Shown here: positions 23,157-49,272 of the stretch, piece after piece
Numbering within the stretch: position 1 is the first letter of the stretch
Layout of the letters: every line of letters begins with the position of its first letter
NCBI GenBank assembly: GCA_947625805.1
Contig: CANQPT010000005.1
Location: 10,181-74,180 of the forward strand
Direction of reading: 5' to 3'
Source: an uncultured Clostridia bacterium
GTDB lineage: Bacteria > Bacillota > Clostridia > Oscillospirales > CAG-272
DNA: 64,000 nt
Position numbers and translations under genes: made by a program
The notes under the pieces: model-generated
What the model was told of the DNA's origin: nothing
What the model saw: only the letters and a program-made list of their open reading frames with translations
Databases searched by the model: none

Positions 23157-23160
23157 GATT

Positions 23161-24822
23161 TTATTCTCCTTTGATACCGCGGTTGATCGACGAGAAGAGC
23201 GCATTGATCGACGATGCGATAATATCGTCGTGAATGCCCGCACCCCAAACCTTTTTGCCGTTTTCCAGCGTAATGCTCATATAGGTGATCGCCTGTGAGG
23301 ACGAGCCCTGTGTGAGAGCGTGCTCCTCGTAGGTCAGATCGGAAAATTTTACTCCGAGGTGCTCCTTGATCGCGTTGCTTACCGCATCCAGCCGCCCGTT
23401 TCCGGTAGCGGACACCTCTTTCGTGCGGCCGTTCACCTCTACGGTCAGGGTCACAACAACTTCTGGGTTGCGCACGAAATGATAATCGATCAGTTTGAAT
23501 GGGGAGTTGATATTCACATACTCGTGGGTAAATACGTCCAGTACCTCTTTCGGTGAGAGTTCGGCATGTGCGCGGTCGGACACGCCCTTGACCGTATAGC
23601 CCACGTCCTCGCGCATTTTGACCGGCAGCACATAACCAAAGTTATGCTCGAGCAGATACCCGATCCCGCCCTTGCCCGACTGAGAATTGATGCGGATGAC
23701 GTCGGTTTCGTATTCTCTGCCCACATCGCCCGGATCCATAGGGAGATACGGCACTGTCCATGTGTCGCAATGCTTTTCTTCCCGCCATTTCATGCCCTTG
23801 GCGATGGCGTCCTGGTGCGATCCGGAGAAAGCGGCGAATACCAGTTTGCCGGCATAGGGCTGTCGGTCGTAGACCGACATACGGGTCACCCGCTCGTACA
23901 ATTCGACGATCTCGGGCATATTTGTAAAATCCAGACCCGGTTCAACGCCGTGGGTGTAGAGATTCAGCGCAAGGGTCACGATATCCGCGTTGCCGGTGCG
24001 CTCACCGTTGCCGAACAGGGTTCCCTCGATGCGGTCAGCACCCGCAAGAATCCCCAACTCGCAGTCCGCCACGGCGCAGCCGCGGTCGTTGTGCGGGTGC
24101 AGAGATACCTCGATGGCATCTCTGTATTTCAGATTGTCGCACATATACTCGATCTGATCGGCGTAGACGTGCGGCGAGGAAAGTTCCACCGTCACCGGAA
24201 GATTGATAATCGCCTTGCGGTCGGGGGTGGGTTTCCAAATATCCAGCACCGCGTTGCAGATCGTGAGGGCAAACTCCGGCTCTGTGCCGGTAAAGGACTC
24301 GGGAGAATACTCGTATCTGTAATTTGTCCCGGTCTCGGCTGCGATCGAATGAAAGAGTTCCGCTCCGTCAGTAGCGATCCTGACAATCTCCTCCTTGGAT
24401 TTGCGGAAGACCTGCTCACGCTGGGCAAGAGAAGTCGAGTTGTACAGGTGTACGATGGCGTTTTTGCAGCCCTGTAAGGCCTCAAAGGTCTTGCGGATAA
24501 TATGCTCACGGCTTTGGGTCAGCACCTGCACGGTCACGTCGTCCGGGATCATACGGTTGTCGATCAGCGTGCGCAAAAAAGTATACTCCGTGTCGCTTGC
24601 CGCCGGGAAACCGACCTCGATCTCCTTAAAGCCGATCTTCACTAAAAGTTCAAAGAACTCTAACTTTTCTTCCAGACTCATAGGAATAATCAGCGACTGG
24701 TTGCCGTCCCGAAGATCGACCGAGCACCAGTGAGGCGCCTTGTCGATCGCAATCTTCTCCACCCATTTTCGTGTGGGATTTTTTACAGGGAAAAATTGCT
24801 TGGTATATTTTGAGGCGTTCAT
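23161..24822 (-). CDS. leuA: 2-isopropylmalate synthase (long LeuA form)
   Basis: 553 aa. HMGL-like TIM barrel ([19 protein letters not shown]) plus a C-terminal LeuA dimerisation/regulatory domain. Confidence 0.95.
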
Positions 24823-24834
24823 CTGTCGTTTCTC

Positions 24835-25212
24835 CTATTCCGCTGCGGCAATCGCTTCCACCTCGACAAGCGCACCCTTGGGCAGGTCTTTTACCGCAAC
24901 GCAGCTACGTGCGGGGGCAGAGGTGATATATCGCTCATATACCCCATTAAACGCGGCAAAATCCGCGATGTCCGCTAAAAAACAGGTCGTCTTGACCACG
25001 GCGTCAAAAGACGCACCGGCGGCATTCAGCACCGCTGACAGGTTTTTCATAACCTGTTCGGTCTGTTCCTCGATGGTCGTGCCGTTCAGCGTTCCGGTTG
25101 CCGGGTCGAGTGCGATTTGACCGGAAGTATACAGCATTCCGTCCACCTTGACCGCCTGTGAATAGGGGCCGATGGCCGCGGGTGCATTGGGAGTGGAAAT
25201 TTTCTCTTTCAT
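24835..25212 (-). CDS. ridA: RidA family reactive enamine/imine deaminase
   Basis: 125 aa. APAAIGPYSQAV ... ARSCVAVKDLPKGALVEVEAIA is typical YjgF/RidA. Confidence 0.92.
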   Translation of the reverse strand: MKEKISTPNAPAAIGPYSQAVKVDGMLYTSGQIALDPATGTLNGTTIEEQTEQVMKNLSAVLNAAGASFDAVVKTTCFLADIADFAAFNGVYERYITSAPARSCVAVKDLPKGALVEVEAIAAAE

Positions 25213-26423
25213 TACGATACCTCCATGATCTTAATACCGAAATCGGTCAGTGCTTTTTTGATACTCTCGATATGCTCGAAGTTCCTTGTTTCCAGGGTCA
25301 GGCGCAGATAGCACCCGTTGACGTCCGAGCCGGCGCCCAGATGTTCGTGATGCACGGCGGTCACGTTTCCTCCCTGCTCCGCGATGATGCGGGAAACGTG
25401 CATGAGCTGACCGGGTTTGTCGACCAACTCGATGGTCATCTGACAACTGCGCCCGGACATCAAGAGACCCCGGGTGATCACGCGGGAGAGTATGGTCACG
25501 TCGATATTCCCTCCGGATAACAGACAAACGGTCTTTTTATCCTTCAGGTCGACCTTGTTGAACATGGCCGCCGCCACAGCCACGGCGCCCGCGCCCTCGG
25601 TGACCAGTTTGTGCTGTTCCATAAGCGCTAAAATGGCCGCCGAGATCTCGTCGTCGGTCACGGTCACGATCTCGTCCACGTATTTTGAACAGATCTCATA
25701 GGTGAGCGCGCCCGGCTCCTTGACTGCAATGCCGTCCGCGATGGTAAATACGGTATCCAGTTTCTCGATTCGTGCGTCCTGAATGGAATTAAGCATAGAA
25801 GACGCGCCCGATGCCTGAACGCCGTAGACCTTGATCTCCGGATTCAGACTTTTGATGGTATAGGCGATACCGGAAATCAGTCCGCCTCCGCCTACGGGTA
25901 CGATCACCGCGTCCATATCCGGGATCTGCTCGGAGAGTTCAAGGGCGACCGTGCCCTGACCCGCAATCACGTCCGGATCGTCAAAGGGGTGGATAAAGGT
26001 ATAGCCCTCTTTATCGCGGAGTTCGATTGCCTTTTGGTATGCGTCATCGTACACGCCGTCTACAAGGCAGATCTCGGCACCATAACTTTTGGTTGCCTCT
26101 ATTTTGGAGATGGGCGCGCTGTCCGGCAAACAAATGACCGCCTTGATTCCGTTTTCACGGGCGGCAAGCGCAACACCCTGCGCATGGTTTCCGGCAGAGC
26201 AAGCGATCACGCCCCGCTTTTTTTCTTCCTCAGACAGGCAGGACATTTTATAATATGCGCCGCGCACCTTAAAAGAGCCTGTGACCTGCAGGTTTTCGGT
26301 TTTGAGATACAATTCCGCACCCGGTTTGAGTTTAGGTGCGTACAGCAGGTCGGTCTGAATTGCGATATCCTTCAGAGCGTACCGTGCTTTATAGACATTG
26401 TCAAGGGTTAATTTTTTACTCAT
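25212..26423 (-). CDS. ilvA: threonine ammonia-lyase (short biosynthetic form with one ACT-like domain)
   Basis: 403 aa. PLP lysine context (LQVTGSFKVRGA), the GGGGLISG loop and a C-terminal regulatory domain. Confidence 0.93.
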   Translation of the reverse strand: MSKKLTLDNVYKARYALKDIAIQTDLLYAPKLKPGAELYLKTENLQVTGSFKVRGAYYKMSCLSEEEKKRGVIACSAGNHAQGVALAARENGIKAVICLPDSAPISKIEATKSYGAEICLVDGVYDDAYQKAIELRDKEGYTFIHPFDDPDVIAGQGTVALELSEQIPDMDAVIVPVGGGGLISGIAYTIKSLNPEIKVYGVQASGASSMLNSIQDARIEKLDTVFTIADGIAVKEPGALTYEICSKYVDEIVTVTDDEISAAILALMEQHKLVTEGAGAVAVAAAMFNKVDLKDKKTVCLLSGGNIDVTILSRVITRGLLMSGRSCQMTIELVDKPGQLMHVSRIIAEQGGNVTAVHHEHLGAGSDVNGCYLRLTLETRNFEHIESIKKALTDFGIKIMEVS

Positions 26424-26428
26424 GTTCG

Positions 26429-27610
26429 TTACAATAGGCTGTGGATAAACTGCTCGGCCGCACGGGGTGAGCGGTTTCCTTTGGCAAGGGCAAACGCCTC
26501 TGCCTTGATATCTAAATCGGTCTTTGGCATATCAATGCCGTTTTTCTGTGCGAGTTTGCGCACGATTTCCAAATAAAGCGCTTTATTCGGTTTTTCAAAA
26601 TATACGGTCAGGCCAAACCGGTCGGAGAGCGACTGCAATTCCTGCACCGTGTCGTTATGGTGAATGTCATCCGACCCGCGCTCGGAAAAGTTCTCCTTGA
26701 CGATATGCCGACGGTTGCTGGTCGCGTATATGACCGCATTACTTGCTTTTGCGGAAGCGGAGCCCTCCAGCGCCGCCTTGAGCATACTGAAAGCATCGTC
26801 GTTCTTATTGAAGGACAAATCGTCAATAAAAATAATAAATTTCAGCGGATTGTCCGCGATTTTGCCCATGACGGCAGAAAGGGAGAACAACTGATCCTTG
26901 CGTAGTTCGATCAGACGCACACCGTCCTGTGCGAAGTGATTGGCGCATGCCTTGACGGTGGAGGACTTGCCTGTCCCGGCGTCGCCGAACAAGAGAATGT
27001 TGGCAGCGGGTCTGCCCTCGATCAGCGCCCGGGTGTTTGCAAAGACCTGTTCCCGTTCGCGCTCATAGCCGATAAACCGATCGGACGTGATCTCATCCGC
27101 CGCTTTTACCGGCAGAATCTCATCTCCTACGACACGGAACATCTTTGCAGTGGCAAACACGCCGTAACCGCAGCGGGAGATCTTTTGCAGCCGGTCGGCA
27201 TAGGCCGCCTCAAAATCGACCGGGCGGTTGTCAAAGCGCGGCAGATAGCCGTGATACTCTATGCCTGCACACAGTCCATCGGCGTCAAGGGCGGTCAGCC
27301 GAGAGAACAGTTTTAACTCAGCCCGCGCATTTCCGGCAAGCACTGCCGGAATCTCGGTCCCCCGTGCCGTGTCGATGATATAGCGGTTTTCGTCCGCATA
27401 CACCGCACGGCACAGAAAGTCCGAAAACGAATAGCGATCTTCCGAAAGTGAAAAGACAAACCGCCCGAACAGTTCCATTTTCTTCTGCGGGTCTTCTTTT
27501 TCGCGCAAAAAGGCAAGCAAGGCTCGCATAGGCTCTGTGCTCAGAATGTTTCGGAACACGCTGAGCGCACCGATCTCGCACGCCAGAGCGCGTCGTTCCT
27601 GTTCGGTCAT
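26429..27610 (-). CDS. DUF815/COG2607-type AAA+ ATPase embedded in the ilv-leu operon
   Basis: 393 aa. Walker A LLFGDAGTGKSS, Walker B FIIFIDDLSF. Gaps to ilvD and ilvA are 12 nt and 5 nt. Family assignment from memory. Confidence 0.75.
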   Translation of the reverse strand: MTEQERRALACEIGALSVFRNILSTEPMRALLAFLREKEDPQKKMELFGRFVFSLSEDRYSFSDFLCRAVYADENRYIIDTARGTEIPAVLAGNARAELKLFSRLTALDADGLCAGIEYHGYLPRFDNRPVDFEAAYADRLQKISRCGYGVFATAKMFRVVGDEILPVKAADEITSDRFIGYEREREQVFANTRALIEGRPAANILLFGDAGTGKSSTVKACANHFAQDGVRLIELRKDQLFSLSAVMGKIADNPLKFIIFIDDLSFNKNDDAFSMLKAALEGSASAKASNAVIYATSNRRHIVKENFSERGSDDIHHNDTVQELQSLSDRFGLTVYFEKPNKALYLEIVRKLAQKNGIDMPKTDLDIKAEAFALAKGNRSPRAAEQFIHSLL

Positions 27611-27622
27611 GTCTTCACTTCC

Positions 27623-29293
27623 TTATTCCGCAAATGTGTTGATGATTGCGCCCCGGTCGGCAGAACTGACCTGGGAGGCGTATCTTGCAAGAGCGCCTTT
27701 GATATCGGTTTTCTTTTTGATCTCTGTGGTCGCCATTCTCTGCTTGATCTCCTCGTCCGAAACGTTCAGCTCAATCGAGTAGTTCGGAATGTCGATCGAG
27801 ATCCGATCTCCGTCCTGCACATAGGCAATCAGGCCGCCGCGTACCGCCTCAGGCGAGATATGCCCGATGGAAGCACCGCGGGTCGCACCCGAGAAACGGC
27901 CGTCTGTGATCAGCGCCACGTCCTTGTCAAGTCCCATTCCAGCGATCGCAGAGGTAGGCGAGAGCATCTCGCGCATACCCGGGCCGCCCGCAGGTCCCTC
28001 GTAACGAATGACCACCACGTCGCCCTTGACAATCCGCCCCGCGTAGATGGCGGCAATCGCGTCTTCCTCGCTGTCAAAGACCTTGGCCGGGCCCTCATGC
28101 CGCAGCATTTCGGGCGCTACCGCACTGCGCTTGACCACGCACCCGTCGGGTGCAAGATTCCCGCGCAGAACGGCGATGCCGCCGGTCTTACTGTACGGGT
28201 TTTCTGCCGGACGAATGACCTCGGGATCGCGGTTGACCGCGTTTGCAAGATTTTCGCCCAGCGTCTTACCGGTACAGGTCATGACGCCGGTGTCAAGCAG
28301 TTCTAATTTGGTCAGTTCCTTTAACACGGCGTAAACGCCGCCCGCCTCGTTCAGATCCTCCATATAGGTAGGCCCGGCGGGAGCAAGGTGACAAAGGTTG
28401 GGAGTCTTTTCGCTGATGGCGTTTGCCATATCAAGGTTGAACTCCACGCCGCATTCGTTGGCGATGGCCGGCAGGTGCAGCATACTGTTGGTCGAGCAGC
28501 CCAGCGCCATGTCGGCGGTCAGCGCATTTTGAATGGCAGAGGCGGTCATGATATCCCGCGGACGGACGCCGGCTCTTACCAGTTCCATGATCTGCATTCC
28601 CGCGTGCTTGGCGAGTTCAAGCCGCGCGGAATAGACCGCAGGGATCGTGCCGTTTCCGCCTAAGCCCATACCCAGTACCTCGGTCAGGCAGTTCATGGAA
28701 TTTGCCGTGTACATACCCGAGCATGAGCCGCAGGTAGGACAGGTATTTTCCTCACATACGCATAACTGATTTTCGTCGATCTTGCCAGCAGAATATGCGC
28801 CCACAGCCTCGAACATACTGGACAGGCTTGTTTTCTTACCGTTCACTCTGCCCGCCAGCATAGGCCCTCCGCTCACAAAAATCGTGGGAATATTGACCCG
28901 GGCGGCCGCCATTAACAGTCCGGGGACGTTTTTGTCACAGTTGGGTACCATGACCAAGCCGTCAAAGCCGTGAGCCAGCACCATTGCCTCGGTGGAATCG
29001 GCGATCAGATCGCGGGTGATCAAGGAATATTTCATTCCCGTATGTCCCATGGCGATGCCGTCGCACACTGCGATGGCCGGAAACACGATGGGTGTTCCCC
29101 CCGCCATTGCAACTCCCATCTTGACCGCGTCCACGATCTTGTCGAGGTTCATATGCCCCGGCACGATCTCATTGTACGAACTGACAATGCCGATCAGGGG
29201 GCGCGCCTGTTCCTCTTTGGTCAAGCCCAAAGCGTGATACAAACTGCGGTGGGGTGCGTTCTGAAAGCCGTCTACGATTGTATCTTTTATCAT
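27623..29293 (-). CDS. ilvD: dihydroxy-acid dehydratase
   Basis: 556 aa. ILVD/EDD signatures ([21 protein letters not shown]). Confidence 0.97.
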
Positions 29294-29304
29294 CGCTTTT
29301 CCCT

Positions 29305-30333
<1,029 letters not shown>

Positions 30334-30345
30334 CTATAAATAAAT

Positions 30346-30837
30346 TTACTTTTCAAGAATGCTGTTGCCCCGCTCAAGGGCCACCACGCCGGTCCGGCAC
30401 ATCTCTACGATGCCCAGCGGCTTCATGACGTCGATAAAGGCGTTGATCTTGGTTGGCTCACCGGTCACCTCAATGCACATGGAATCTGTGGTGTAGTCGA
30501 TGACCTTTGCACGATAGATCTCGGCGGCCGCCATGATCTCGCTGCGGTTGTCGGGGGTGTTTTTGACTTTGAGAAGCATGAGTTCCCGCTCCACCGAACT
30601 TGCGGTTTTGAGCAATTTGACACGTTTGACATTGTGCAGTTTTTTGAGTTGGTTGATCACCTGCTCGCGGGTGGATTCGTCCCCGTTCAGGCTGATGGTG
30701 ATCCGCGAGAAATCGGGATCGTCCGTCTCCCCCACGGTCAGAGAGTCGATATTGAATCCCCTGCGCATGAACAGCCCCGACACCCGGGTCAGTACACCGT
30801 ATTTGTTCTCTACATATATCGCAATGACACTGCGCAT
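30346..30837 (-). CDS. ilvN: acetolactate synthase small (regulatory) subunit
   Basis: 163 aa. ACT domain (IAIYVENKYGVLTRVSGLFMRRGFNIDSLTVG) plus a C-terminal ALS_ss_C domain. Confidence 0.93.
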   Translation of the reverse strand: MRSVIAIYVENKYGVLTRVSGLFMRRGFNIDSLTVGETDDPDFSRITISLNGDESTREQVINQLKKLHNVKRVKLLKTASSVERELMLLKVKNTPDNRSEIMAAAEIYRAKVIDYTTDSMCIEVTGEPTKINAFIDVMKPLGIVEMCRTGVVALERGNSILEK

Positions 30838-30847
30838 GGTTTTCCTC

Positions 30848-32545
30848 CTAATCTACCGATGTGATCATGTCCTCGATCGAGCCTCCGGGAGGAAGCATCG
30901 GGAGCACAAACTCGTCCATATCAATAAGCGTGTCGATCAGATACGGGCCGTCGTGCTGCATGGCACGGCAAAAGGCCGTCTTGAATTCCTCCGGCGTGGC
31001 CGCCCGGCTTGCGGGAAGTCCAAAGGCGTCCGCCAACTTGACAAAATCAGTCTTGCGCTCCAGTACGGTATTCGAATACCGCTTATCAAAAAACAGGGTC
31101 TGCCACTGTCTGACCATGCCCAGCACGCCGTTGTTGAACAGCACGATGACCACCGGCGTATTATAGGTCACGGCTGTGGCAAGTTCGTTCAGATTCATAC
31201 CGAAACTTCCGTCGCCGGTGATCAGTACCGTCTTATCACCGCTTGCGATCTGTGCACCGATGGCGGCGCCTAAGCCGTAGCCCATGGTGCCTAAGCCGCC
31301 GCTGGAGGCGAATCTGCGGGCACGCTCAAAATCCACGTATTGCGCCGCCCACATCTGGTGCTGTCCCACATCGGTGGCGATCACGGTGTTTTTGTCCTTG
31401 ATCTCATTGATGATATCAAAGACCTTTTTGGGGGTCATGGCCCCTCCGGCCTTTTGCTCGGCCGCGTCCTGAATGCGCTTTGCTTCTTTCTTGAGGCCGG
31501 CGATCGTCGCGTTCCATTCGGGATGCTCGCGCTTCTCGCAGCGCTCCAAAATCCGCTCACAGGAAGAAACGATACTGCCGATCAGACCGAGATCTACCTT
31601 GACGTTCTTTCCGATCTCCGAAAGGTCGGTATCCAGTTGAATGATCTTGGCGTGCTTTGCGTATTTGGCGGTGTTTCCGGTAGCCCGGTCGCTGAATCGC
31701 ACGCCGATGCCGATGATCAGGTCGGCCTCTTTATTGGCCATGGAAGAGGCGTATTGCCCGTGCATACCCTGCATACCGAGAAAACGGTCGTAGGAATTCG
31801 GAAAAGCCGACAGACCCATGAAAGTGCAGCCGATATAAGCGTCGATCTTCTCGGCAAGGGTCATAATCAATTTGGTCATGCCGCGTCCGGCGGCGCCGCC
31901 GCCGATGTAGATATACGGACGCTCGGCCTGCCCGATCAGTTCAACTGCACGGTCGATCTCGGAATCCTCCGCAATTTCCTGTGGGAACGGCTCGACCGCT
32001 TCCCCTTTCACAAACTCACACTCGGCGGTCTGGATATCCTTTGGAATATCGATCAACACAGGTCCGGGTCTGCCGGATTTGGCGATCCGGAATGCCTCAC
32101 GGATGGTATCGGCAAGTTCGGTTACGTCGTTTACAAAGAAATTGTGCTTTGTGATCGGCAGGGTGATGCCGGTGATGTCAATCTCCTGGAAACTGTCCCG
32201 GCCGATCAGCGTGGTGGGCACATTTCCGGTAATGGCCACCATGGGAATGGAATCCAGCATGGCGGTGGCGATCCCGGTCACCAGATTGGTCGCGCCCGGG
32301 CCGGACGTGGCGATGACCACGCCCACCTTTCCGGTCACCCGCGAGTAACCGTCCGCCGCGTGCGCCGCCCCCTGCTCATGTGCGGTCAGCACATGATTGA
32401 TCCGGTCGCTTGCCTTGTACAATTCATCATAAAGGTTGAGCACCTGTCCGCCGGGATAGCCGAACACGTCGGTGACCCCCTGTTCGATCAGCGTTTCAAC
32501 CACGATTTGCGCACCCGTCATCGGCACGCCTTGTGCGTTTTGCAT
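30848..32545 (-). CDS. ilvB: acetolactate synthase large (catalytic) subunit
   Basis: 565 aa. ThDP-enzyme motifs (GYPGG, GDGSFGMNLNELAT). GGAG RBS 8 nt before ATG 32545. Confidence 0.96.
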   Translation of the reverse strand: MQNAQGVPMTGAQIVVETLIEQGVTDVFGYPGGQVLNLYDELYKASDRINHVLTAHEQGAAHAADGYSRVTGKVGVVIATSGPGATNLVTGIATAMLDSIPMVAITGNVPTTLIGRDSFQEIDITGITLPITKHNFFVNDVTELADTIREAFRIAKSGRPGPVLIDIPKDIQTAECEFVKGEAVEPFPQEIAEDSEIDRAVELIGQAERPYIYIGGGAAGRGMTKLIMTLAEKIDAYIGCTFMGLSAFPNSYDRFLGMQGMHGQYASSMANKEADLIIGIGVRFSDRATGNTAKYAKHAKIIQLDTDLSEIGKNVKVDLGLIGSIVSSCERILERCEKREHPEWNATIAGLKKEAKRIQDAAEQKAGGAMTPKKVFDIINEIKDKNTVIATDVGQHQMWAAQYVDFERARRFASSGGLGTMGYGLGAAIGAQIASGDKTVLITGDGSFGMNLNELATAVTYNTPVVIVLFNNGVLGMVRQWQTLFFDKRYSNTVLERKTDFVKLADAFGLPASRAATPEEFKTAFCRAMQHDGPYLIDTLIDMDEFVLPMLPPGGSIEDMITSVD

Positions 32546-32573: not shown

Positions 32574-32613
32574 CAAAAAACTTTCGTCCCTTTGATATCA
32601 AAGAGACGAAAGT
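32574..32613 (-). terminator. T-box leader terminator
   Basis: Minus strand ACTTTCGTCTCTTTGATATCAAAGGGACGAAAGTTTTTT. Its 5' arm can alternatively pair with the T-box sequence to form the antiterminator. Confidence 0.85.
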
Positions 32614-32855
32614 ATCATTGCAGTTCATTACTTCCGCGGTACCACTCTTTTTCATTCTTTCAAAAGAATGCGCCTTCGGTGCCTCATACACCCTGCTCTG
32701 TTACGGGAGCGCCCGTCTGCACCTACTCTGTTTTATTTCCGTACAGCCGCTCCACGGTGAGTTCCGCAATTCTTTCCGACGTCTTTCACCAACCGACGTC
32801 TCTCTGCAAGTAAAAGCCACTGCGTACTGATCCGCTTCATCGCGTTTTGCTATGT
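32574..32855 (-). promoter_or_regulatory. T-box riboswitch leader with Leu (CUC) specifier
   Basis: Read on the minus strand. Stem I elements GCGATGA (K-turn), AGTA, CAGAGAGA (AG bulge) and GGTGAAAG (distal loop). Specifier context GAA-CUC-A, with CUC at 32761-32759. Conserved T-box AAAGAGTGGTACCGCGGAAG (32652-32631), followed by the terminator. Confidence 0.88.
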
Positions 32856-32862
32856 TTTTATG

Positions 32863-32891
32863 ATTTTACCACAATTTCTATGCCCTGTCAA
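32863..32891 (-). promoter_or_regulatory. sigma-A promoter of the ilv-leu operon
   Basis: Minus strand TTGACA (32891-32886), 17-nt spacer ending TGG, TAAAAT (32868-32863). Confidence 0.7.
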
Positions 32892-32907: not shown

Positions 32908-34620
32908 TTATATGGCAGAGCCGGTTGGCGTCTCAGGCGTGGCGCCGTCCCCGGGCGGGGTCATATCTCCGCCTATGCCGGGATCAAAGTTTCCGCCTCC
33001 GGGAAAGCCTCCCTGCCCGTCGGGCGGGTCGGGCGGTGTATCGCCCGTCCCATTGCCCGACTGATCCATTTTGTCTCTTCCGCCGGGGCCTCGATCAAAG
33101 CCGCGATCGCCGGGCATCATGCCTCCGCCCATGCCGCCGGTACCGCCCTGGGAATAGATCAGTCCCGACATGGTCACGTCGGTATTCGCGCTTGGCGTTG
33201 CGATGGTATAACTTCCGTCCGCCGTGATTTCCGGACAACTGACCAGCACGCTCTGATACTGCTTTTCCGGAACACAACTTGCGATTATCTTGCCGTCCTG
33301 AGAGGAAATCGTCAATTCCTCTCCCGCACTTCCGGAGAAATTCACCAAGATAGAGCCCTGTGTGGAATCCTCGCCGAAGTTCATTGCCATCCCCGCACTG
33401 CCCAAAGCCACAAACACTCCTCCCGTAATCTTGCACGCTCCTGCATAATCCAGCGCACCGTTTCCGCTGTCGGTCGGCCCGTAGATAAACGTGGTCCCGC
33501 CGCTCACCGTAATCGAGCCGTTGGAATCCACTCCGTCCCCTGCGGCGTTGACCGTGATCCTACCGCCTGAGATCTCGATAAAACAATCGCCGTCGGCGGC
33601 AAACCGTTCCCCGCCGCGGCCCAAGCCGCCAAATCCGCTCTCATCCGCGCCGCCCGCAGCGTTGATGCCGTCATCGTCGGCCCGCAGCGTAATTTCACCG
33701 CCTGTGACTGTGACGCTCTCTCCTTCCAAGCCCTCATAACTGTCTGTGATGGTGATCTCGCCGCCATGGATCACAAGAGCTCCGTCCGCGTGCATCCCGT
33801 CATCGCCTGTTGCGATGGTGAACTGTCCGCCGTTTACCGTAAGGTCGGAACCGGAATGCAGCGCATCGTCCGCACAGTCAAGGACAAATGTTCCTCCGTT
33901 CAACTGCATGGAACCCAGCGTGGGATCATCGGTATTTTCCACATGCAAACCGTCCTTGCCCGCACCAAGCGTAAACGCTCCCCCGGCGATTTCGATCGCA
34001 TCGTTGGCATCCACGGCGTGAGAGGCCGCCTCTACCGTATAATTGCCGCCTGCGATCTTGAGCGTGTCCTTGCACACGATACCGTGTCCGCTCACTGATC
34101 CGACCGTAAGCGATCCCTCTCCGTTCAAAGTCAGATCGTCCTTTGCAAAGATCGCAGCGTCGATATTGTTATCGTCGATGGCGATATATTCCCCCGTGGT
34201 CCGCAGAGTATTTTGACTTTCTCTTGCAAGGGTCACAATCACCTTTTCCGCCTGCTTTACATAAAGCGGCGCACTGTTCTCGCTCTCTAAAGAAAGTGAG
34301 TCTAACACCAAACGCACCGTCTCGCCCTTAGCGTCTACGGTCACCTGTCCTGAGCCGCTCCCGGTCAGAAGATATAATCCGCCTGCGCCCACGGTCACAG
34401 TATTTCCGGATATCAGCACACCGCTATCTTTGCAATCTGCACGATCGCCGTCAAACGAAATGCATACCGCCGCATCAGCGTCATAACCGATCTCGGTATC
34501 CTCCGCGCTGAACCGTTCCGCCGTTCGCTCCTCTTGCCCGGAAGCCGGTTTGCGCGAGCAGGCCGTACAGCATACCGCCATCGCAAGCGCAAGCGTGAAA
34601 ATGACCTTACATTTGTTCAT
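32908..34620 (-). CDS. lipoprotein with Cthe_2159-type carbohydrate-binding beta-helix repeats and a G/P/D-rich tail
   Basis: Signal peptide and lipobox MNKCKVIFTLALAMAVCCTAC. Repeats of the type DDALHSGSDLTVNGG, GDDGMHADGALVIHGG, ADDDGINAAG and AGDGVDSNGSITVSGG. Low-complexity C-terminal 80 aa. Confidence 0.8.
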   Translation of the reverse strand: MNKCKVIFTLALAMAVCCTACSRKPASGQEERTAERFSAEDTEIGYDADAAVCISFDGDRADCKDSGVLISGNTVTVGAGGLYLLTGSGSGQVTVDAKGETVRLVLDSLSLESENSAPLYVKQAEKVIVTLARESQNTLRTTGEYIAIDDNNIDAAIFAKDDLTLNGEGSLTVGSVSGHGIVCKDTLKIAGGNYTVEAASHAVDANDAIEIAGGAFTLGAGKDGLHVENTDDPTLGSMQLNGGTFVLDCADDALHSGSDLTVNGGQFTIATGDDGMHADGALVIHGGEITITDSYEGLEGESVTVTGGEITLRADDDGINAAGGADESGFGGLGRGGERFAADGDCFIEISGGRITVNAAGDGVDSNGSITVSGGTTFIYGPTDSGNGALDYAGACKITGGVFVALGSAGMAMNFGEDSTQGSILVNFSGSAGEELTISSQDGKIIASCVPEKQYQSVLVSCPEITADGSYTIATPSANTDVTMSGLIYSQGGTGGMGGGMMPGDRGFDRGPGGRDKMDQSGNGTGDTPPDPPDGQGGFPGGGNFDPGIGGDMTPPGDGATPETPTGSAI

Positions 34621-35299
34621 GGTTTTCCTCCTTGTCGGAGATGCCGATCTCCAGGTTTCCGTTGCGCACCCGCAGGGCGTCGATCAATTCTTTTTCTGTT
34701 TTGGGATCCTTTAAGACGATCTCATAATTCAAGCGGAACATACTGCCCATATTGGCGGTTTTCACAGAAGTTTGCTTATAAAATGAAGTATAGCGCGCAA
34801 AGAGATCGTCAAACAGGCCGGGATAGTCGAGGTCCTCCGGAATCGTGATACGCAGGGTCTTGACACGGGAGCCGCACCGTGTACCCAAAGGACTTATGTA
34901 GCAGATCAGCACCACGGCGCCGGTCACCAGCGTAAACAAGGTCGCGTATCCGAGATAGCCCATACCGCAGAGCAATCCCGCCGCCATGGCAAGAAAGATC
35001 ATTTCGATCTCCTTGGCAGTACCGGGAATGCTGCGGAACCGGGTCAGGCTGAATACGCCCGCGACGGCAACGCTTGCGCCGATATTGCCGTTCACCATCA
35101 TGATAACCACGCAGACCGCTGCGGGCAGCAGCACCAGCGTCATCAAATAACTCTTGGAAGCTGTGGTTTTGTACCGGAAAGCCAGCGCAAGGATCCCGCC
35201 CAGCGCCAGACTGACCATAATACACAACAAAAAGTCGGTCACCGAAATCACAGGTTGCAGTTCTGTGTCAAAAATCCCGCGAAACAATCCGTCAAGCAT
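34607..35299 (-). CDS. DUF4956-like integral membrane protein
   Basis: ATG 35299 after GGGGAGGAAA. About 4 TM helices, then a soluble C-terminal domain (VKTLRITIPEDLDYPGLFDDLFARYTSFYK). Overlaps both neighbouring genes. Confidence 0.7.
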   Translation of the reverse strand: MLDGLFRGIFDTELQPVISVTDFLLCIMVSLALGGILALAFRYKTTASKSYLMTLVLLPAAVCVVIMMVNGNIGASVAVAGVFSLTRFRSIPGTAKEIEMIFLAMAAGLLCGMGYLGYATLFTLVTGAVVLICYISPLGTRCGSRVKTLRITIPEDLDYPGLFDDLFARYTSFYKQTSVKTANMGSMFRLNYEIVLKDPKTEKELIDALRVRNGNLEIGISDKEENHEQM

Positions 35300-36011
35300 G
35301 TCGTATTTCCTCCCCGGCCGTTTTGCCCTCACCGAAGAGGACGCGGTAGACCGTTCCGTATTTTGAAAATGAAGTTTTATAGAGTTTCATCTCTGAAAGC
35401 AATTTGACGATATACAAAGGCAGTGCGCCTCCGCATTTCAATTCCATAAGCACCGTGTCGGACGAAAGCAGGGCTATGCCGTCCGGCGGTCGGCTTAAGG
35501 ACAGGTGGTGATCCCGAAAGAGAATGTTCTCGTCAAAGGTCATACGCAAAGCCGGATCTTCCGCATCATAAAAGGCATCCCGCTCGTAGGACAGGTAGAC
35601 CCGCGGTGCGAGAGACGGATAGCGAGAAAAGAAATATGCGATCTCTTTTGCGATCTGGGTATCCGCTGTTTTCGGCAGTTCCCGTAACCGCCCGGACTCC
35701 GAGGCCGGCAGGCCGATTCTGCGCTTATAGACAACGCCGTCATACTTCCTTTTGATCTCAGCATATACCTTATCGTCGGCTTTCGCCGTGCCGTAACTGC
35801 GCAAGCGGAGTTTCTCCTTATATTGCGGCTGTTCCAGCGAACGGCGGACGAGCAGATAGTCGGACGTATCGTAATACAGATTGCAGACGGTACTGTGGCC
35901 GAATTCATCCGCGCGCAATCTTCCGGAAAGGGTCGAAAGGATTTGCTCTCGCTGTTCCTTTTTGATCAGATATTTGATTTCATAACGGCGAAAGACCGTT
36001 TGTATTTTCAT
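35292..36011 (-). CDS. VTC-domain (polyphosphate polymerase-like, CYTH/TTM tunnel fold) protein
   Basis: ATG 36011 after AAGGGGGA. Motifs FRRYEIKYLI, VCNLYYDT, KEKLRLRSYG and VYAEIKRKYDGVVYKRR are typical of bacterial VTC-domain proteins. Confidence 0.8.
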   Translation of the reverse strand: MKIQTVFRRYEIKYLIKKEQREQILSTLSGRLRADEFGHSTVCNLYYDTSDYLLVRRSLEQPQYKEKLRLRSYGTAKADDKVYAEIKRKYDGVVYKRRIGLPASESGRLRELPKTADTQIAKEIAYFFSRYPSLAPRVYLSYERDAFYDAEDPALRMTFDENILFRDHHLSLSRPPDGIALLSSDTVLMELKCGGALPLYIVKLLSEMKLYKTSFSKYGTVYRVLFGEGKTAGEEIRHA

Positions 36012-36060
36012 GGCGTTTTCCCCCTTTGCAGGGTCAGTATATCGCCTCAAACTTAAACCA

Positions 36061-36096
36061 AATTAAAAATTCCCGCACGACGTGCAGGAATTTTTT
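36061..36096 (-). terminator. terminator after the histidine kinase gene
   Basis: Minus strand AATTCCTGCACG-TCG-TGCGGGAATT followed by TTTTTAATTT. Confidence 0.7.
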
Positions 36097-36203
36097 GAAA
36101 AATCGCATAATAAAAAGTGAATGACGGAAAGGTCTGCCATATGCCGGGATATTTCAGGGCAATTCCCTGCCCCGTCCCGCCTTACAAGAGAGCACACTCT
36201 GCA

Positions 36204-37424
36204 TTATAAGGTAACGGTAAAACAAATCATTCCGTTCGTATCGGCACGGGCGGTGACCTTACCGCGATGGGCGTTCACGATGGCCTGTACCGTGGAAAGT
36301 CCGATGCCAAAGCCGCCCGTCTTGGTACTGCGGGAATCGTCCGGCCGCCAAAAGCGTTCAAACAGTTCCTTGTGCTCACCCGGAGCAAAGCCTTCGGCGG
36401 GGTTGGACACCGTCAGAATCCGCCGCTTGCCCGCGCTTTTTAAGGAAAGGGTGACGGTTCCGGCGTCGGATGCGTACTTGACCGCGTTATCGAGAAGAAG
36501 ATCCACCATACGGCGAATAGCCTGCTGATCGCCCCGGAAGAGAACGCCGTCCTCGATCTTTGTTTTGAGTTGCTTGCCCGCGCCCTCGGCTACCGCGCCA
36601 AAAGGCTCGGCCGCGTCACGCACAGCCTCGGACAGAGAAAACTCGCTTTCCCGCATACCGTTTTCCTCCTCCATACGGCAGAGGGTGACCAGTTTTTCCA
36701 CAAGGGAAGTCAAACGGGAAACCTGTGCGCGGATACTTTTTGTCCACTCGCTCTCCCCTGCGGTCATTTCGATCACCTCGGCGTTGGTCTCGATCACGGT
36801 CAGCGGGGTTTTCAGTTCGTGGCTCGCGTCTGTGATAAAGCGCTTTTGTTTTTCATAACTGCGCACCACCGGCGCAAGTACCGCCCCCGAAAAGAGAAAG
36901 ATCAACAGGCATACCAGCACAAGGGCTGCAAGGCTGATCCAGACACTCGACCGTAAAAATGACCGAAAGGTTTCCAAATCCCGCGCACAGTCGAGGAACA
37001 GGTACATGATCTTATCATCATCACTGCGCGCGCAGTATTTGTAATCGCCGTAAAAGCCGGAAGTTTTGCCTGCGGCAAACAACTCCTCCGCCATCTCTTT
37101 TGCCGAGACTGTGTCCACAGCCGCAATCCGTCCGGTATCCACGGAGAGCACGCCGCCCTTTTGATTCAGCGTAACCGAAAAATATCTTGTTTCAAACGGC
37201 GCTTCGGGAGAAAAATCCTCGCCGTGCATGGGCGGTCGGTCGTCGTGCTGCTGCAGGCCGGGAAATACTCCGTCATTGCGGGCGAGCAACTCTAAACGCC
37301 GGTCTGCGTTCTGATTGATCTTATAGTAATTGATCGCGTTGATCGCGCCGATAATGACGATCAATACCAGCGCAACAGCGCTCATGGCGCTGACCATCAA
37401 CTTCCTGCGCAAGCCTTTAACCAT
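36204..37424 (-). CDS. sensor histidine kinase (two TM helices, ~140-aa extracytoplasmic loop, HisKA + HATPase_c)
   Basis: H-box ITDASHELKTPLT, N-box LLDNAVKY and G-boxes (GGFGIGLS). Confidence 0.9.
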   Translation of the reverse strand: MVKGLRRKLMVSAMSAVALVLIVIIGAINAINYYKINQNADRRLELLARNDGVFPGLQQHDDRPPMHGEDFSPEAPFETRYFSVTLNQKGGVLSVDTGRIAAVDTVSAKEMAEELFAAGKTSGFYGDYKYCARSDDDKIMYLFLDCARDLETFRSFLRSSVWISLAALVLVCLLIFLFSGAVLAPVVRSYEKQKRFITDASHELKTPLTVIETNAEVIEMTAGESEWTKSIRAQVSRLTSLVEKLVTLCRMEEENGMRESEFSLSEAVRDAAEPFGAVAEGAGKQLKTKIEDGVLFRGDQQAIRRMVDLLLDNAVKYASDAGTVTLSLKSAGKRRILTVSNPAEGFAPGEHKELFERFWRPDDSRSTKTGGFGIGLSTVQAIVNAHRGKVTARADTNGMICFTVTL

Positions 37425-38094
37425 GATTTTCCTCTAAAACGTAGCCGAGATTTCTGCGGGAACGTATGCACACCTGAGAGCCTGTGGAAGCAAGTTTTTT
37501 GCGCAGGTTGGAAAGATACACCCAAACGGTATTGATCTCAGCCTCCGCATCGTAGCCCCAGATCTTTTCAAAAATGCGCTCGGCGGAGATGACACAGTTG
37601 GGGCTTTCCAAAAACAACTCCATCATTTGATATTCCTTGCCCGCCAGACTGCAACTGTCGACAGGGCCGCTCAAGCGGCAGCCGGCCCGATCTAAGGTTA
37701 AGTCTCCGAAACGCAAAAGATTGGAGGCCTGCCCCTCTCTGCGGCGGGTCATCGCGCGGATGCGCGCCAACAGTTCGGCCGAAGAAAAGGGTTTGGTCAG
37801 ATAATCGTCCGCGCCCGAATCAAGGCCGGCCACCCGATCGTCGATCTCCGATCGCGCGGTCAAAAGCAAGACCGGAGTGAGATTGCCGCGCTCTCGCAGC
37901 GCACGCACCACGCTGATCCCGTCCCGTTCCGGCATCATAACGTCTAACACCGCGCCGTCATACTGACCGTCGGTCAGATAATCAAGCGCGTCCTCGCCGT
38001 TGTCCACCGTATCTACCGAATAATTATGATGGGTCAAAATCGCCGCAAGCGCACGGGAAAGTTCCCGTTCGTCGTCTGCAAGCAAAATCCGCAT
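37417..38094 (-). CDS. OmpR/PhoB-family response regulator
   Basis: ATG 38094 after GGGGAGGAAA. Receiver domain (MRILLADDE ... LDVMMPERDG ... TARS). Winged-helix C-terminus (LTGKEYQMMELF ... RNLGYVL). Confidence 0.92.
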   Translation of the reverse strand: MRILLADDERELSRALAAILTHHNYSVDTVDNGEDALDYLTDGQYDGAVLDVMMPERDGISVVRALRERGNLTPVLLLTARSEIDDRVAGLDSGADDYLTKPFSSAELLARIRAMTRRREGQASNLLRFGDLTLDRAGCRLSGPVDSCSLAGKEYQMMELFLESPNCVISAERIFEKIWGYDAEAEINTVWVYLSNLRKKLASTGSQVCIRSRRNLGYVLEENHG

Positions 38095-38198
38095 TGCCGT
38101 TTCCTCCCCGCTTTGGTATTCGCGCGCACGCAAATCACTTTATTCCGTATCTCCGGGCTTTTTTCTTAATTTTATCACAAATACAGGCAGTTTGCAAC

Positions 38199-43461: not shown

Positions 43462-45834
43462 TCAATTATACAGATACGATTTTTCGTAACGCATGAGAAT
43501 GGTTGCAACCTGTGCGCGGGTGGCCGATCCCTTGGGATTCAGAATGACCTCACTGCCGGAGGTGGTGCCGGAGATCAGCTCTTCCGCATTGGCCCATGCA
43601 AGCGCCTCCTTGGCGTAGTTGGAAGTCTTGCCGCCGTCCGGGAAGGAATTCAGATTGGCGCTCTTACTGGTATCAAAGCCCTTATACTGCGTATAGCGGT
43701 AGAGAATGGCCGCCATCTGCTCACGGGTGATGTTGTTGGTGGGAGAGAACACGCCCTCGCCGGTACCGTTGACAATCTCGTTGGAGGAAGCCCAGATGAC
43801 TGCATCGGTATAATACTTGCCGGCGGCAACGTCCGTAAAGACGTTGTCCTGCGCATTCACTTCCGGGCTGCCCTCCATACGGTAGAGCACGCTGACCAGC
43901 ATACCGCGGTTCATGACGTTGTTGGGCGCAAAGGTAGTATCCGAGGTACCGTTGAACAACTCGTGGTTGACCGCATAGTCTACTGCCTCGTAGTACCACT
44001 TGTCGGTCTGAACGTCCGGGAAAGTATCGCCCACATTGACCAGTTTGGGCATGAGAGTATTGTCCGTCTGTTCTCCGCAGCGCTTGCAATGATGGGACTT
44101 ACTGCCCGGAATCTTGTCTGTTGCGGCCCTGTCAATGGTCCACTTGGTGTCGTAATCATGCGCAGGCAGATGATTCAGTTGACAAAAACCGCACACCTCG
44201 CAGACACGCTGCTCAATACCGACGTTGCAGTTCGGCTCGACGACGGTTTTCCACGCGCCGAAGGTATGTCCGTCCTTGCAGGCAGCGACCTGCGCAAAAG
44301 CCGTGGCAGAACCGCTCACCTGATCCTTGACCGTAAACGATCCGATATAGTTGGCGGCATAGGTGGAATTCCAGATACCGTCATTTGCAAAATGCACGGT
44401 ACGTTTGTTGGAACTTGCACCGGACTCGGCATAACCGAGCGTGCCCATACGAAGATATACCTTGTATTCGCCGGCTCTGGCGTCGCGCGGTACAGTCAAC
44501 TCGGCGATATAGTAACTCTTTAAGCCCGAGGTCCAATTACGCGCATCGATCTGGGAGGGAATGACAGTCTCCTCTCCGTCCGCGTCGACCACGATCAACT
44601 CTGTCGTCATCTTGGGAAGAAGATTGCCGAAGCCCGTATTCTCGACGGTACCTTTCAGCTTGACCGTTCCTCCCTTGCTGACCGACCCTGTGGTCTGTGC
44701 GGCGCGAATGACAAAGCGATAACCCATATGGTCATACATAAATTTCTGTAAAGACTGTCCGTAGTAGGCCGACACGTCCGGCATACCGGCAAAATCGTGG
44801 TTGTGACCCAGCGGGATCTTCTCAAGTTCTTCACAGGGATCCGGCCCATTGACAATGTTATAAAGATAATTCAAGTGAGTCTCATAGAGTTCTTCGACCA
44901 GCCAGTCCTCATAGACGGGAGAGCCGTTGGCCTTCATATACTCTGCCGTCGTGTACGCAAGTTCGCCGCCGTAGGGAACGTGCAGCTGCCACTGCAAAAT
45001 CTGTACTCCGTTGCTGCGGGAAGTCGAATTGGCGCTCCATGTGCCGTAGTCGCCGGAGGTGCCGAGATATCCGTGATTATACATACCCAGCCGATAGAGT
45101 TTGCTGTCTTTATCAAAGGGAAGCATCTTGAGCAGGCCGATGTCGATGGTTTTGGCATACTGGATCACAAAACCCATATGACGCACCTGAAGGGTAATGC
45201 TCTCGTCCAGATTGTCAAGATACATGTCTAAGATCTGATCGATGTATTCCTTGCCCTGATAGTCGGAGGAGTGCATCTCGCCCCAGGGACCGACCATACC
45301 GCATTCGACCGAGATCACGACGTCCTTGTATTCGTTGATGATCGGGATAAACTGCTCCATATGGTGTAAGAGCATATTGAAATCAGACGGCTCGACCCCG
45401 CAGAAACTTTCACTGGTGTAGCCAAAACTCGGGATAAGATAGACGCCCTGCTCGCGTGCCGCCTCAAAGGTGTCTCTGATGGCTTGAAGCGCTTCGTCGG
45501 TCAGCGGCAGATCCTCTCCGCCCACCTGGCTGGAATGATCCTCCGGATAACCGTCCTGTATACGGTCTGTACCCGCAGAAAAATCACCCAGGTCAAATTT
45601 CGGACAATACATACCGTACTCGCCGTAGTCGGTCATCCGTTCGGAATTTCCGTTCTTGCGCAAAGTGTACCAGCGGTACGGCGCCCAGCCGCGTGCCGGA
45701 TTGGTGTTGAATGTTTCCAGAGATTCTCCATAGTTGATGCCCGAGTCCACCCAGTCGTCTGCTCCAACGGCGCAGAAAGACGTAGTCCCGAACAGCATCA
45801 TCATGCAAAGAAGCACTGCAGTAAGTTTCTTCAT
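43462..45834 (-). CDS. secreted SLH-anchored protein with DUF4874/DUF4832-like (glycoside-hydrolase-like) N-terminal region and a Cys-rich insert
   Basis: Signal peptide. About 500-aa catalytic-like region. Cys-rich segment at residues 519-586. Three C-terminal SLH repeats (FPDVQTDKWYYEAVDYA, FTDVAAGKYYTDAVIWA, FPDGGKTSNYAKEALAWA). Confidence 0.8.
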   Translation of the reverse strand: MKKLTAVLLCMMMLFGTTSFCAVGADDWVDSGINYGESLETFNTNPARGWAPYRWYTLRKNGNSERMTDYGEYGMYCPKFDLGDFSAGTDRIQDGYPEDHSSQVGGEDLPLTDEALQAIRDTFEAAREQGVYLIPSFGYTSESFCGVEPSDFNMLLHHMEQFIPIINEYKDVVISVECGMVGPWGEMHSSDYQGKEYIDQILDMYLDNLDESITLQVRHMGFVIQYAKTIDIGLLKMLPFDKDSKLYRLGMYNHGYLGTSGDYGTWSANSTSRSNGVQILQWQLHVPYGGELAYTTAEYMKANGSPVYEDWLVEELYETHLNYLYNIVNGPDPCEELEKIPLGHNHDFAGMPDVSAYYGQSLQKFMYDHMGYRFVIRAAQTTGSVSKGGTVKLKGTVENTGFGNLLPKMTTELIVVDADGEETVIPSQIDARNWTSGLKSYYIAELTVPRDARAGEYKVYLRMGTLGYAESGASSNKRTVHFANDGIWNSTYAANYIGSFTVKDQVSGSATAFAQVAACKDGHTFGAWKTVVEPNCNVGIEQRVCEVCGFCQLNHLPAHDYDTKWTIDRAATDKIPGSKSHHCKRCGEQTDNTLMPKLVNVGDTFPDVQTDKWYYEAVDYAVNHELFNGTSDTTFAPNNVMNRGMLVSVLYRMEGSPEVNAQDNVFTDVAAGKYYTDAVIWASSNEIVNGTGEGVFSPTNNITREQMAAILYRYTQYKGFDTSKSANLNSFPDGGKTSNYAKEALAWANAEELISGTTSGSEVILNPKGSATRAQVATILMRYEKSYLYN

Positions 45835-49228: not shown

Positions 49229-49258
49229 CCCCCTGCGTCATATTGACGCAGGGGGTTT
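49229..49258 (+). terminator. intrinsic terminator
   Basis: CCCCCTGCGTCA / TAT / TGACGCAGGGGG followed by TTT. Confidence 0.75.
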
Positions 49259-49272
49259 CATATCCATGTAGC

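Follow-up and report, generated by a model that had tools for sequence, protein, structure and literature searches.

In this study, we describe a five-gene module in a 64,000-nucleotide stretch of DNA from an uncultured Clostridia bacterium (contig CANQPT010000005.1, positions 10,181 to 74,180 of the forward strand; hereafter "the window"). The genes lie on the minus strand and encode, in order, an OmpR/PhoB-type response regulator (RR), a sensor histidine kinase (HK), a soluble protein with a VTC domain (named after the eukaryotic vacuolar transporter chaperone), a DUF4956 membrane protein and a surface lipoprotein of the Cthe_2159 family. Three conclusions are well supported: the VTC-domain protein is a catalytically equipped, Vtc4-like tunnel protein, it works together with DUF4956 and, in this clade, with the surface β-helix lipoprotein, and the unit appears to be switched on by its own sensor system. 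The enzyme is a candidate Vtc4-like tunnel-fold polyphosphate (polyP) polymerase, and polyP would be its product. Based on these observations, we tentatively favor the idea that the module is a sensor-induced, membrane-coupled polyP polymerase that may deliver its polymer to a cation-binding β-helix on the cell surface. An earlier note on this DNA had assigned the five products to the same families, and Pfam upheld every assignment, with gene order and coordinates unchanged.

The VTC-domain protein

The Pfam VTC match scored 135.4 bits against a cut-off of 23 and covered profile positions 2-235 of 235. VTC is the sole Pfam domain of the protein, which has no SPX domain and no hydrophobic segment. 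When its AlphaFold2 (AF2) model (predicted local distance difference test score, pLDDT, 88.9; predicted template modeling score, pTM, 0.85) was submitted to Foldseek, the best match was yeast Vtc4 (3G3R, E=2.7e-14, TMq 0.71), and the top 13 matches were all VTC structures; YgiF and other CYTH/TTM enzymes ranked lower.

To map individual residues, a profile from a 27-sequence homolog alignment was compared with yeast Vtc4 (3G3Q, 8I6V). K13, R69, R71, K87, Y142, and R144 of the window protein align to Vtc4 K200, R264, R266, K281, Y359, and R361, respectively. These six triphosphate-binding residues are invariant across the 27 homologs, and invariant basic and acidic residues occur throughout the protein. 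The tunnel Lys and Arg residues on which the polymerase reading of the earlier note leaned, together with the Tyr, are present without exception in the alignment. Nine Vtc4 residues have been described whose mutation lowers polyP in yeast (10.1101/2023.01.27.525886), and six of the nine could be aligned in the window protein. Two other motifs, E190-x-K192 and S216-K217 (SFSKY), are also invariant; they stand in the order expected for Vtc4 E426, S457, and K458, and are kept in the VTC copies from a Clostridiales metagenome-assembled genome (MAG) and from Methanolobus (see below). Judged by motif order, they are the putative equivalents of E426 and S457-K458. In Vtc4, E426 is a metal ligand, and K458 separates the active Vtc4 from the inactive Vtc2/3. 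Among the matches listed, the closest relatives of the VTC protein are 57-59% identical, and the closest relatives of the VTC and DUF4956 proteins taken together are 57-64% identical. The exact DUF4956 sequence of the window corresponds to no recorded gene, and its source organism seems poorly represented among database entries.

Gene order and wider gene links

A genome scan, with one genome per species, yielded at least 591 confirmed VTC relatives. Synteny was analyzed in the best 80 of these (at least 591) relatives, which come almost entirely from Clostridia; the denominators given here are the loci with enough flanking sequence. Cultured carriers include Roseburia inulinivorans DSM 16841 (L015), Ruminococcus sp. 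JE7B6 (L061), and Clostridiales bacterium CCNA10 (L055). DUF4956 directly follows VTC in 77 of 77 loci, and the third gene in order encodes a Cthe_2159 protein in 62 of 71. Of the 47 loci with sufficient sequence on either side, 31 have an orthologous two-component system next to the module: upstream and on the same strand in 16, divergent in 12, and downstream in 3. The 8-nt overlap between VTC and DUF4956 is available in 48/77 loci, and neither a glycoside hydrolase nor a sugar transporter is part of the conserved module. This gene order recurs in dozens of genomes, which is more than chance, and the synteny strongly supports the proposal of the earlier note that the genes form one functional unit; the trio is syntenic in other genomes, including that of an archaeon.

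The archaeal copy came from an independent search that started from the sequence of the Cthe_2159 structure. This search recovered the VTC-DUF4956-Cthe_2159 trio in the Clostridiales MAG and, in the same order and with the catalytic residues conserved, in a contig of an uncultured Methanolobus (L097 5531-8269). The Methanolobus trio has transposase genes on its flanks and a PAS histidine kinase gene 2.5 kb upstream, and the copy suggests horizontal transfer of the module. One homolog recovered in the same search stands alone. A large secreted CotH protein is encoded directly upstream of the founding Cthe_2159 gene and of the ortholog of that gene in Acetivibrio clariflavus (L091 5553-8870, L092 4003-8870, L093 5556-8861); in L092 the CotH gene is split by a transposase insertion. 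The neighboring CotH proteins carry LTD, Fn3_assoc, CHB_HEX_C_1, CotH, and Flg_new_2 domains. In A. clariflavus, the CotH-Cthe_2159 pair lies inside an exopolysaccharide (EPS) cluster with genes for a priming transferase, pyruvyl transferase, UDP-glucose dehydrogenase, GT2/GT4 enzymes, and Wzy. Furthermore, one protein (P0465) has both Cthe_2159 and CotH Pfam domains. All three pairings, VTC-DUF4956 with CotH, CotH with Cthe_2159, and VTC-DUF4956 with Cthe_2159, therefore exist. A tblastn search with two CotH queries found no CotH gene in the window or within 10 kb in the 80 loci, and no pel-type domains were found among the 20 large flanking open reading frames of the window that were scanned. 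As a separate observation, Cthe_2159 and CotH are both among 40 Pfam domains that occur in anaerobic gut fungi and are absent from other chytrids (10.1101/401869).

The DUF4956 membrane protein

The AF2 model of the DUF4956 protein (pLDDT 73) has five predicted transmembrane (TM) helices (residues 20-42, 49-68, 73-88, 95-113, and 116-135) and a C-terminal domain (residues 146-222) with a β-α-β-β-α-β, ferredoxin-like (ACT-like) fold. By the positive-inside rule, its basic loops and C-terminal domain would be cytoplasmic. Foldseek matched the C-terminal domain alone, and weakly, to ACT, PII, and S6 structures and to 2LQJ, the C-domain of MgtC; the helix bundle drew no match. The family is large, with 4668 clusters at 50% identity (E<=1e-3). 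We aligned 99 sequences, namely 96 cluster representatives (50% identity) together with the copies from the window, L096, and L097, and found an invariant signature, G81-x-F-x-L-x-R87-F-R89-S90, at the predicted cytoplasmic end of helix 3. P59, G108, G114, and several residues of the C-terminal domain are likewise invariant.

The protein resembles MgtC/SapB/YhiD in its size, in its N-terminal helix bundle with Gly-rich helices, and in its C-terminal ACT-like domain; it has no significant sequence or profile similarity to them. Pfam MgtC matches were found in 12 of 31 DUF4956 members, all of them sub-threshold (best E-value 0.05), and hhalign gave a probability of 0.1% against E. coli YhiD and of 1% against a 7-sequence MgtC alignment from plasmid records. 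Homology with MgtC is therefore unsupported, and the likeness is one of architecture alone.

Among the cluster representatives, five proteins (P0255, P0297, P0335, P0351, and P0354) appeared to be VTC+DUF4956 or DUF4956+Cthe_2159 fusions. Since both domains are truncated in each of them, we dropped them as "Rosetta-stone" evidence; they are most likely frameshift or assembly artefacts at overlapping gene junctions.

The Cthe_2159 lipoprotein

The lipoprotein matches Pfam Cthe_2159 in two stretches (260.7 bits against a cut-off of 25.8) and the crystal structure of Cthe_2159 from Clostridium thermocellum (4PEU) with E=7e-37 over residues 49-287, so that the β-helix assignment of the earlier note is secure. 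A hydrophobic stretch (residues 3-22) forms part of a signal peptide with lipobox Cys21. The lipobox in the window, C-T-A-C, has an atypical Cys at -3; Cys21 itself is kept by at least 90% of the 54 homologs compared, which bear canonical L-x-[GA]-C lipoboxes. The mature protein is strongly acidic (isoelectric point, pI, 4.05; 81 Asp+Glu vs. 27 Lys+Arg), with a conserved Asp ladder (D154, D162, D185, D207, D223, D316, D317, D362, D365, and D391) and a conserved Lys ladder (K126, K160, and K184). Its tail (residues 491-570; window 32908-33150, minus strand) is of low complexity and rich in Gly, Met, Pro, and Asp. Many homologs end in GGM/GGGMGG-type tails with a terminal Arg or Lys, and others end in the β-domain, with the tail absent. 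Met-rich tails can bind Cu(I).

The homology with Cthe_2159 is clear, and both proteins are acidic β-helices with repeated Asp-containing turns. They differ in that the window protein is 570 aa long (vs. 313 aa for the 4PEU chain), is a lipoprotein, and has a second Cthe_2159 stretch and the low-complexity tail; furthermore, the founder gene sits beside CotH and not beside VTC-DUF4956. For the founder, binding to cellulose and polygalacturonate and a likeness to PL9 pectate lyases have been reported (Close et al., 2014, as cited in 10.1101/401869). Based on these reported properties, it is plausible, by analogy, that the lipoprotein binds a polyanion via bridging Ca2+, as pectate lyases do. 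The earlier note had proposed a polyanion-binding β-helix. The fold is as it had proposed; given the acidity of the protein, a polyanion could be held only via bridging cations.

The two-component system and a candidate operator

The presumed phospho-acceptor of the RR is Asp51, in an LDVMMP motif. The HK has two TM segments (residues ~5-36 and ~155-190), an H-box His202, and an external loop of ~120 aa (residues ~37-158), rather than the 140 aa given in the earlier note; such a loop probably serves an extracytoplasmic signal. All NCBIfam matches were below the equivalog cut-offs: RppA 206 vs. 250, PhoB 176 vs. 296, RppB 161 vs. 400, and PhoR 141 vs. 334. The best of these sub-cut-off matches for the RR were RppA, TctD, and PhoB. 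Heavy-metal families also matched below their cut-offs (cztS/silS/copS, 1.2e-38; cztR/silR/copR, 1.3e-50).

In related loci, a tandem direct repeat is found ~60-80 nt 5′ of the VTC start codon, just before a -10-like hexamer. A box of the TTTAAG-N5-TTTAAGG type occurs in 34 of 72 VTC upstream regions, one of the TTCAAT-N5-TTCAAT type in 13, and either type in 46, with background rates per 110-nt window of 1.6% (TTTAAG type) and 0.12% (TTCAAT type). The box in our window, TTTAATTTGGTTTAAGT (36067-36051), is the sole match to the box pattern in 64 kb, and covers the -35 position of a candidate promoter with TATACT as its -10 element; the candidate operator sequence upstream of VTC reads TTTAATTTGGTTTAAGTTTGA. 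Related loci have TATACT, TACAAT, or TAAGAT at an equal distance from the box. The type of box follows the clade of the RR, with TTTAAG/TTCAAT counts of 19/0 in the close clade and 3/10 in the distant clade (Fisher p=4e-6).

A direct repeat over the -35 position is the class II activation layout of OmpR/PhoB-family regulators. The box is, from its pattern and position, a candidate binding site of the adjacent RR. Because the box type follows the RR clade and the layout is of class II, control of the operon by the adjacent sensor, as the earlier note had proposed, is the best supported of our inferences. As with PhoR/PhoB at pho boxes, an OmpR-family regulator is combined with tandem repeats (11-bp period) in place of a -35 element; unlike pho boxes, the repeats are TTTAAG or TTCAAT, and the system scores below the PhoB/PhoR equivalog cut-offs.

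Layout of the locus and its neighborhood

The coordinates of the five genes and of the predicted control elements are given in Table 1. The hairpin between HK and VTC sets the sensor operon apart from the VTC operon. The ATG start codon of the RR gene, at 38094, is preceded by a ribosome-binding site (RBS), GGAGGA. Within each operon the genes overlap: by 8 nt at the RR/HK junction, where the HK start lies over the RR stop; by 8 nt, ATGCTTGA, at the VTC/DUF4956 junction, where the DUF4956 start lies over the VTC stop; and by 14 nt at the DUF4956/lipoprotein junction, where the lipoprotein start lies over the DUF4956 stop. Shine-Dalgarno-like sequences (GGAGGA/AAGGAGGA) are located 5′ of the DUF4956 and lipoprotein starts; inspection of the RR/HK junction revealed no evident RBS-like motif upstream of the HK start. 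The 8- and 14-nt overlaps and the terminator after HK that had been noted earlier are real, and the argument made from them, that the last three genes are translationally coupled, holds. NCBIfam has no model for the VTC, DUF4956, or lipoprotein product. A PADLOC search for defense systems gave no match for the trio, and we therefore rejected a defense-system reading.

Table 1. Genes and predicted control elements of the module (window coordinates)
Feature	Position	Strand	Basis
OmpR/PhoB-type response regulator (RR), 225 aa	37417-38094	-	Pfam Response_reg 1.1e-29 + Trans_reg_C 5.2e-18
Sensor histidine kinase (HK), 406 aa	36204-37424	-	Pfam HisKA 2.8e-12 + HATPase_c 2.4e-21
VTC-domain protein, soluble, 239 aa	35292-36011	-	Pfam VTC PF09359, E=3.1e-39
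DUF4956 membrane protein, 230 aa	34607-35299	-	Pfam DUF4956 PF16316, E=2.1e-14
Surface lipoprotein, 570 aa	32908-34620	-	Pfam Cthe_2159 PF14262, E=1.7e-77
Promoter-like site TTGCAA-17-TAAAAT, TG-extended, 5′ of RR gene	38169-38197	-	Consensus scan; pattern match only
Intrinsic-terminator-like hairpin, 14-bp stem, between HK and VTC	36065-36095	-	RNA fold dG -17.6 kcal/mol, z=-3.7
Candidate direct-repeat box TTTAATTTGG/TTTAAGTTTGA, 11-bp period, over -35 position	36047-36067	-	Box-pattern match
Candidate -10 hexamer TATACT, putative VTC operon promoter	36036-36041	-	Read from sequence; inference

Upstream, the module is flanked by an AraC-type gene and rhamnose catabolism genes; on its downstream side come a strong promoter, a T-box leader, and then ilvBNC. 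The promoter (TTGACA-17-TAAAAT, 32891-32863, minus strand) lies directly 3′ of the lipoprotein stop codon and drives ilvB-ilvN-ilvC, and the leader (RF00230, 124 bits) is at 32599-32849 on the same strand; we saw no terminator that would separate the ilvBNC promoter from the lipoprotein gene (window 32599-32891). The ilvBNC genes belong to a branched-chain amino acid cluster (20335-32545, minus strand) that comprises leuB-like, aconitase-type leuC, leuA-like, pyridoxal phosphate (PLP) enzyme, ilvD, and ilvBNC genes, and is interrupted by a gene for a DUF815 AAA ATPase (26429-27610).

Beyond the sensor genes, at a distance of 5.3 kb, the window encodes a surface protein of 790 aa that combines DUF4874 and DUF4832 with two SLH domains (43462-45834, minus strand). 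We considered it as a fourth component and rejected it, as there is no DUF4832 homolog within 10 kb of the trio in any of the other 80 loci; its closeness to the trio is therefore probably a coincidence. Other genes in the window include one for a Polysacc_synt/MatE flippase-like protein (49243-50844, plus strand) and two pairs of fused ABC exporter genes (ABC_membrane + ABC_tran; 50905-55913 and 57801-61520, minus strand), between which sits a nucleotidyl-transferase gene.

Discussion

The pairing of a VTC-like gene with DUF4956 is not new. A VTC-like polymerase and DUF4956 have been listed, along with cotH and DUF4832, among the accessory genes of pel loci in Gram-positive bacteria (Whitfield et al., 10.1101/768473). 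They were also discussed for Streptococcus intermedius, in a study that found cotH-VTC-DUF4956 nowhere but in pel operons (10.1101/2024.04.20.589940), and NELoc-2 of Clostridium perfringens carries the pair as well (PMC2879425). These loci share with ours a VTC-like gene, then a gene whose TM product has an ACT-like domain, and a third gene for a secreted or surface protein. Here, that third product is a Cthe_2159 β-helix lipoprotein and not the CotH of pel loci, a dedicated two-component system and operator are present, and the flanks are ilvBNC and rhamnose genes and not pelDEA(DA)FG. Our literature search turned up no mention of a Cthe_2159 partner, a dedicated sensor, or an operator, and this variant of the set appears to be undescribed. 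The earlier note had stated that the system had not been described experimentally. This is correct insofar as the pel-locus and NELoc-2 reports contain no experiment on the proteins; the VTC-DUF4956 pair itself had, however, already been reported. What we describe is thus a gene set that was noted earlier but never characterized, to which we add a Cthe_2159 partner, a sensor and operator of its own, and a copy in an archaeon.

How might such a module work? We envisage that the HK senses a signal that is probably extracytoplasmic, and that the phosphorylated RR would then bind the tandem repeat over the -35 position, just after the HK terminator, and switch on the three-gene operon. The VTC enzyme would polymerize phosphate from ATP into polyP. 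DUF4956 would be its obligate membrane partner, docking the polymerase and passing the growing chain to, or through, the membrane, and the lipoprotein would capture the polyanion on the outer face of the cell via bridging Ca2+ or Mg2+. Docking, translocation across the membrane, and binding of the polymer by the lipoprotein are the conjectural parts of this scheme. We infer the export step from three lines of reasoning, namely that the pair has an extracytoplasmic partner both here (62 of 71 loci) and at the published pel loci, that Cthe_2159, CotH, and VTC-DUF4956 are linked in all three pairwise combinations, and that there is an analogy with eukaryotic VTC.

The resemblance to the yeast VTC complex lies in the catalytic fold, which gives the best structural match, in the six triphosphate-binding residues common to both, and in the constant pairing of the bacterial enzyme with a polytopic membrane protein. 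There are also clear differences. The bacterial polymerase has neither an SPX domain nor a TM domain of its own, and it is paired with a separate membrane protein, DUF4956, in which no similarity to the VTC channel could be detected. Its target would be the cell membrane, with the polymer directed outward, and its control would be transcriptional, via a two-component system, whereas the yeast complex is controlled by inositol pyrophosphates and SPX. The "split analogue of VTC" of the earlier note is therefore to be understood as analogy and not homology; the Foldseek search gave no sign of similarity between DUF4956 and the Vtc1/3/4 channel domains.

Several points weigh against our favored scheme. 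Foldseek did not match the DUF4956 model to the yeast VTC channel (7YTJ, 8I6V, and 9UMG), so that the idea of a channel draws no support from structural similarity. The monomer is modeled, with moderate confidence, as a small helix bundle, and its ACT-like domain would suit a regulator equally well as a conduit. HMMER, whether used with a phmmer consensus segment or a sub-profile, did not align the E426/S457/K458 region of Vtc4, and we therefore treat the equivalence of the two C-terminal motifs as provisional. The acidity of the lipoprotein excludes direct binding of a polyanion, and cation bridging has to be assumed. In addition, 9 of the 71 loci have no Cthe_2159 gene after VTC-DUF4956, with mostly an opposite-strand or unrelated gene in its place. 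Our literature search found no experiment on any bacterial VTC-like protein, and in the S. intermedius study the polyP was suggested to remain in the cytoplasm (10.1101/2024.04.20.589940).

The last point leads to the main rival explanation, in which polyP would be a cytoplasmic or membrane-tethered store, DUF4956 an MgtC-like anchor or allosteric regulator whose ACT-like domain senses a metabolite, and the lipoprotein a protein with a separate surface role, such as cation capture. We consider this rather unlikely. DUF4956 does share the architecture of MgtC, a TM bundle followed by a C-terminal ACT-like domain, with 2LQJ among its weak fold matches and sub-threshold Pfam MgtC matches in over a third of the members searched, and CDD assigned the streptococcal homolog, for which cytoplasmic polyP was proposed, to MgtC (10.1101/2024.04.20.589940). 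The profile comparisons with MgtC and YhiD were, however, not significant, and a cytoplasmic store leaves the near-constant extracytoplasmic third protein, Cthe_2159 here and CotH elsewhere, unexplained. In another rival explanation, the lipoprotein would be a plain binder of plant fiber (cellulose or pectin), and its linkage to VTC-DUF4956 would be functionally meaningless. The reported binding of cellulose and polygalacturonate by the founder (Close et al., 2014, as cited in 10.1101/401869), and the origin of the relatives in gut and rumen Clostridia, would fit such a role. Nevertheless, we regard it as very improbable, given that gene order and coupling are conserved in the great majority of loci and in an archaeon, that the lipoprotein gene overlaps DUF4956 by 14 nt, and that the conserved module contains no glycoside hydrolase or sugar transporter. 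Moreover, the founder itself sits beside a secreted CotH, and the A. clariflavus pair lies in a cluster for EPS synthesis and not degradation.

Exported polyP could also be a reagent and not a structure, providing phosphoanhydride energy or phosphoryl groups for the secreted CotH kinases of other clades or, in our case, for a Cthe_2159-type protein that would modify a glycopolymer of the cell surface. In a variant of this proposal, the enzyme might (poly)phosphorylate an exported polymer or carrier. Outside the cell, secreted kinases have no obvious source of ATP, which speaks for this proposal, as do the occurrence of all three pairings and the combination of Cthe_2159 and CotH domains in P0465. 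On the other hand, Cthe_2159 proteins have no known catalytic residues, CotH was absent from the window and from the 10-kb surroundings of the 80 loci in our tblastn search, and the case is one of association, so we assign it a low probability. Lower again is the probability that we assign to cation or metal buffering, in which polyP and the acidic, Met/Gly-tailed lipoprotein would trap divalent or heavy-metal cations at the envelope, with the kinase acting as the metal sensor. The low pI and conserved Asp ladders of the lipoprotein, the Gly/Met-rich tails of many homologs, and the moderate, sub-cut-off scores of the two-component system against heavy-metal families are in keeping with it, but the tails vary and many homologs lack one, RppA/B and PhoB/R score equal to or above the metal families, and no metal transporter is linked to the module.

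Our tentative preference for a membrane-coupled polymerase that exports polyP can be extended to a broader, and distinctly doubtful, generalization. VTC-DUF4956 might be a prokaryotic machine for polyP synthesis and export, present in Bacteria and at least one archaeon, that is analogous to eukaryotic VTC and built with an unrelated membrane subunit; Cthe_2159 (as polyP receptor or organizer) and CotH (as polyP user) would then be interchangeable extracellular clients.

Bacterial polyP is normally credited to PPK1/PPK2 and is regarded as cytoplasmic. Several bacteria accumulate extracellular polyP that affects host cells (e.g., PMC10653871 and PMC12772234), and we found no description of an export route in the literature searched. 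If the VTC-DUF4956 pair does export polyP, it would represent a second, independently evolved coupling of polyP synthesis to membrane transit, and would account for the fact that the pair travels with secreted CotH kinases and EPS loci. The "carbohydrate-binding" Cthe_2159 family would, if this is true, be reassigned to the handling of polyanions or polyP. The predicted operator and dedicated sensor offer an experimental handle on when the system is induced. Many of the genomes with VTC relatives are from gut and rumen Clostridia, and the module is common in gut anaerobes; if the export generalization holds, genes would be at hand to explain polyP that gut Clostridia display on their surface or secrete.

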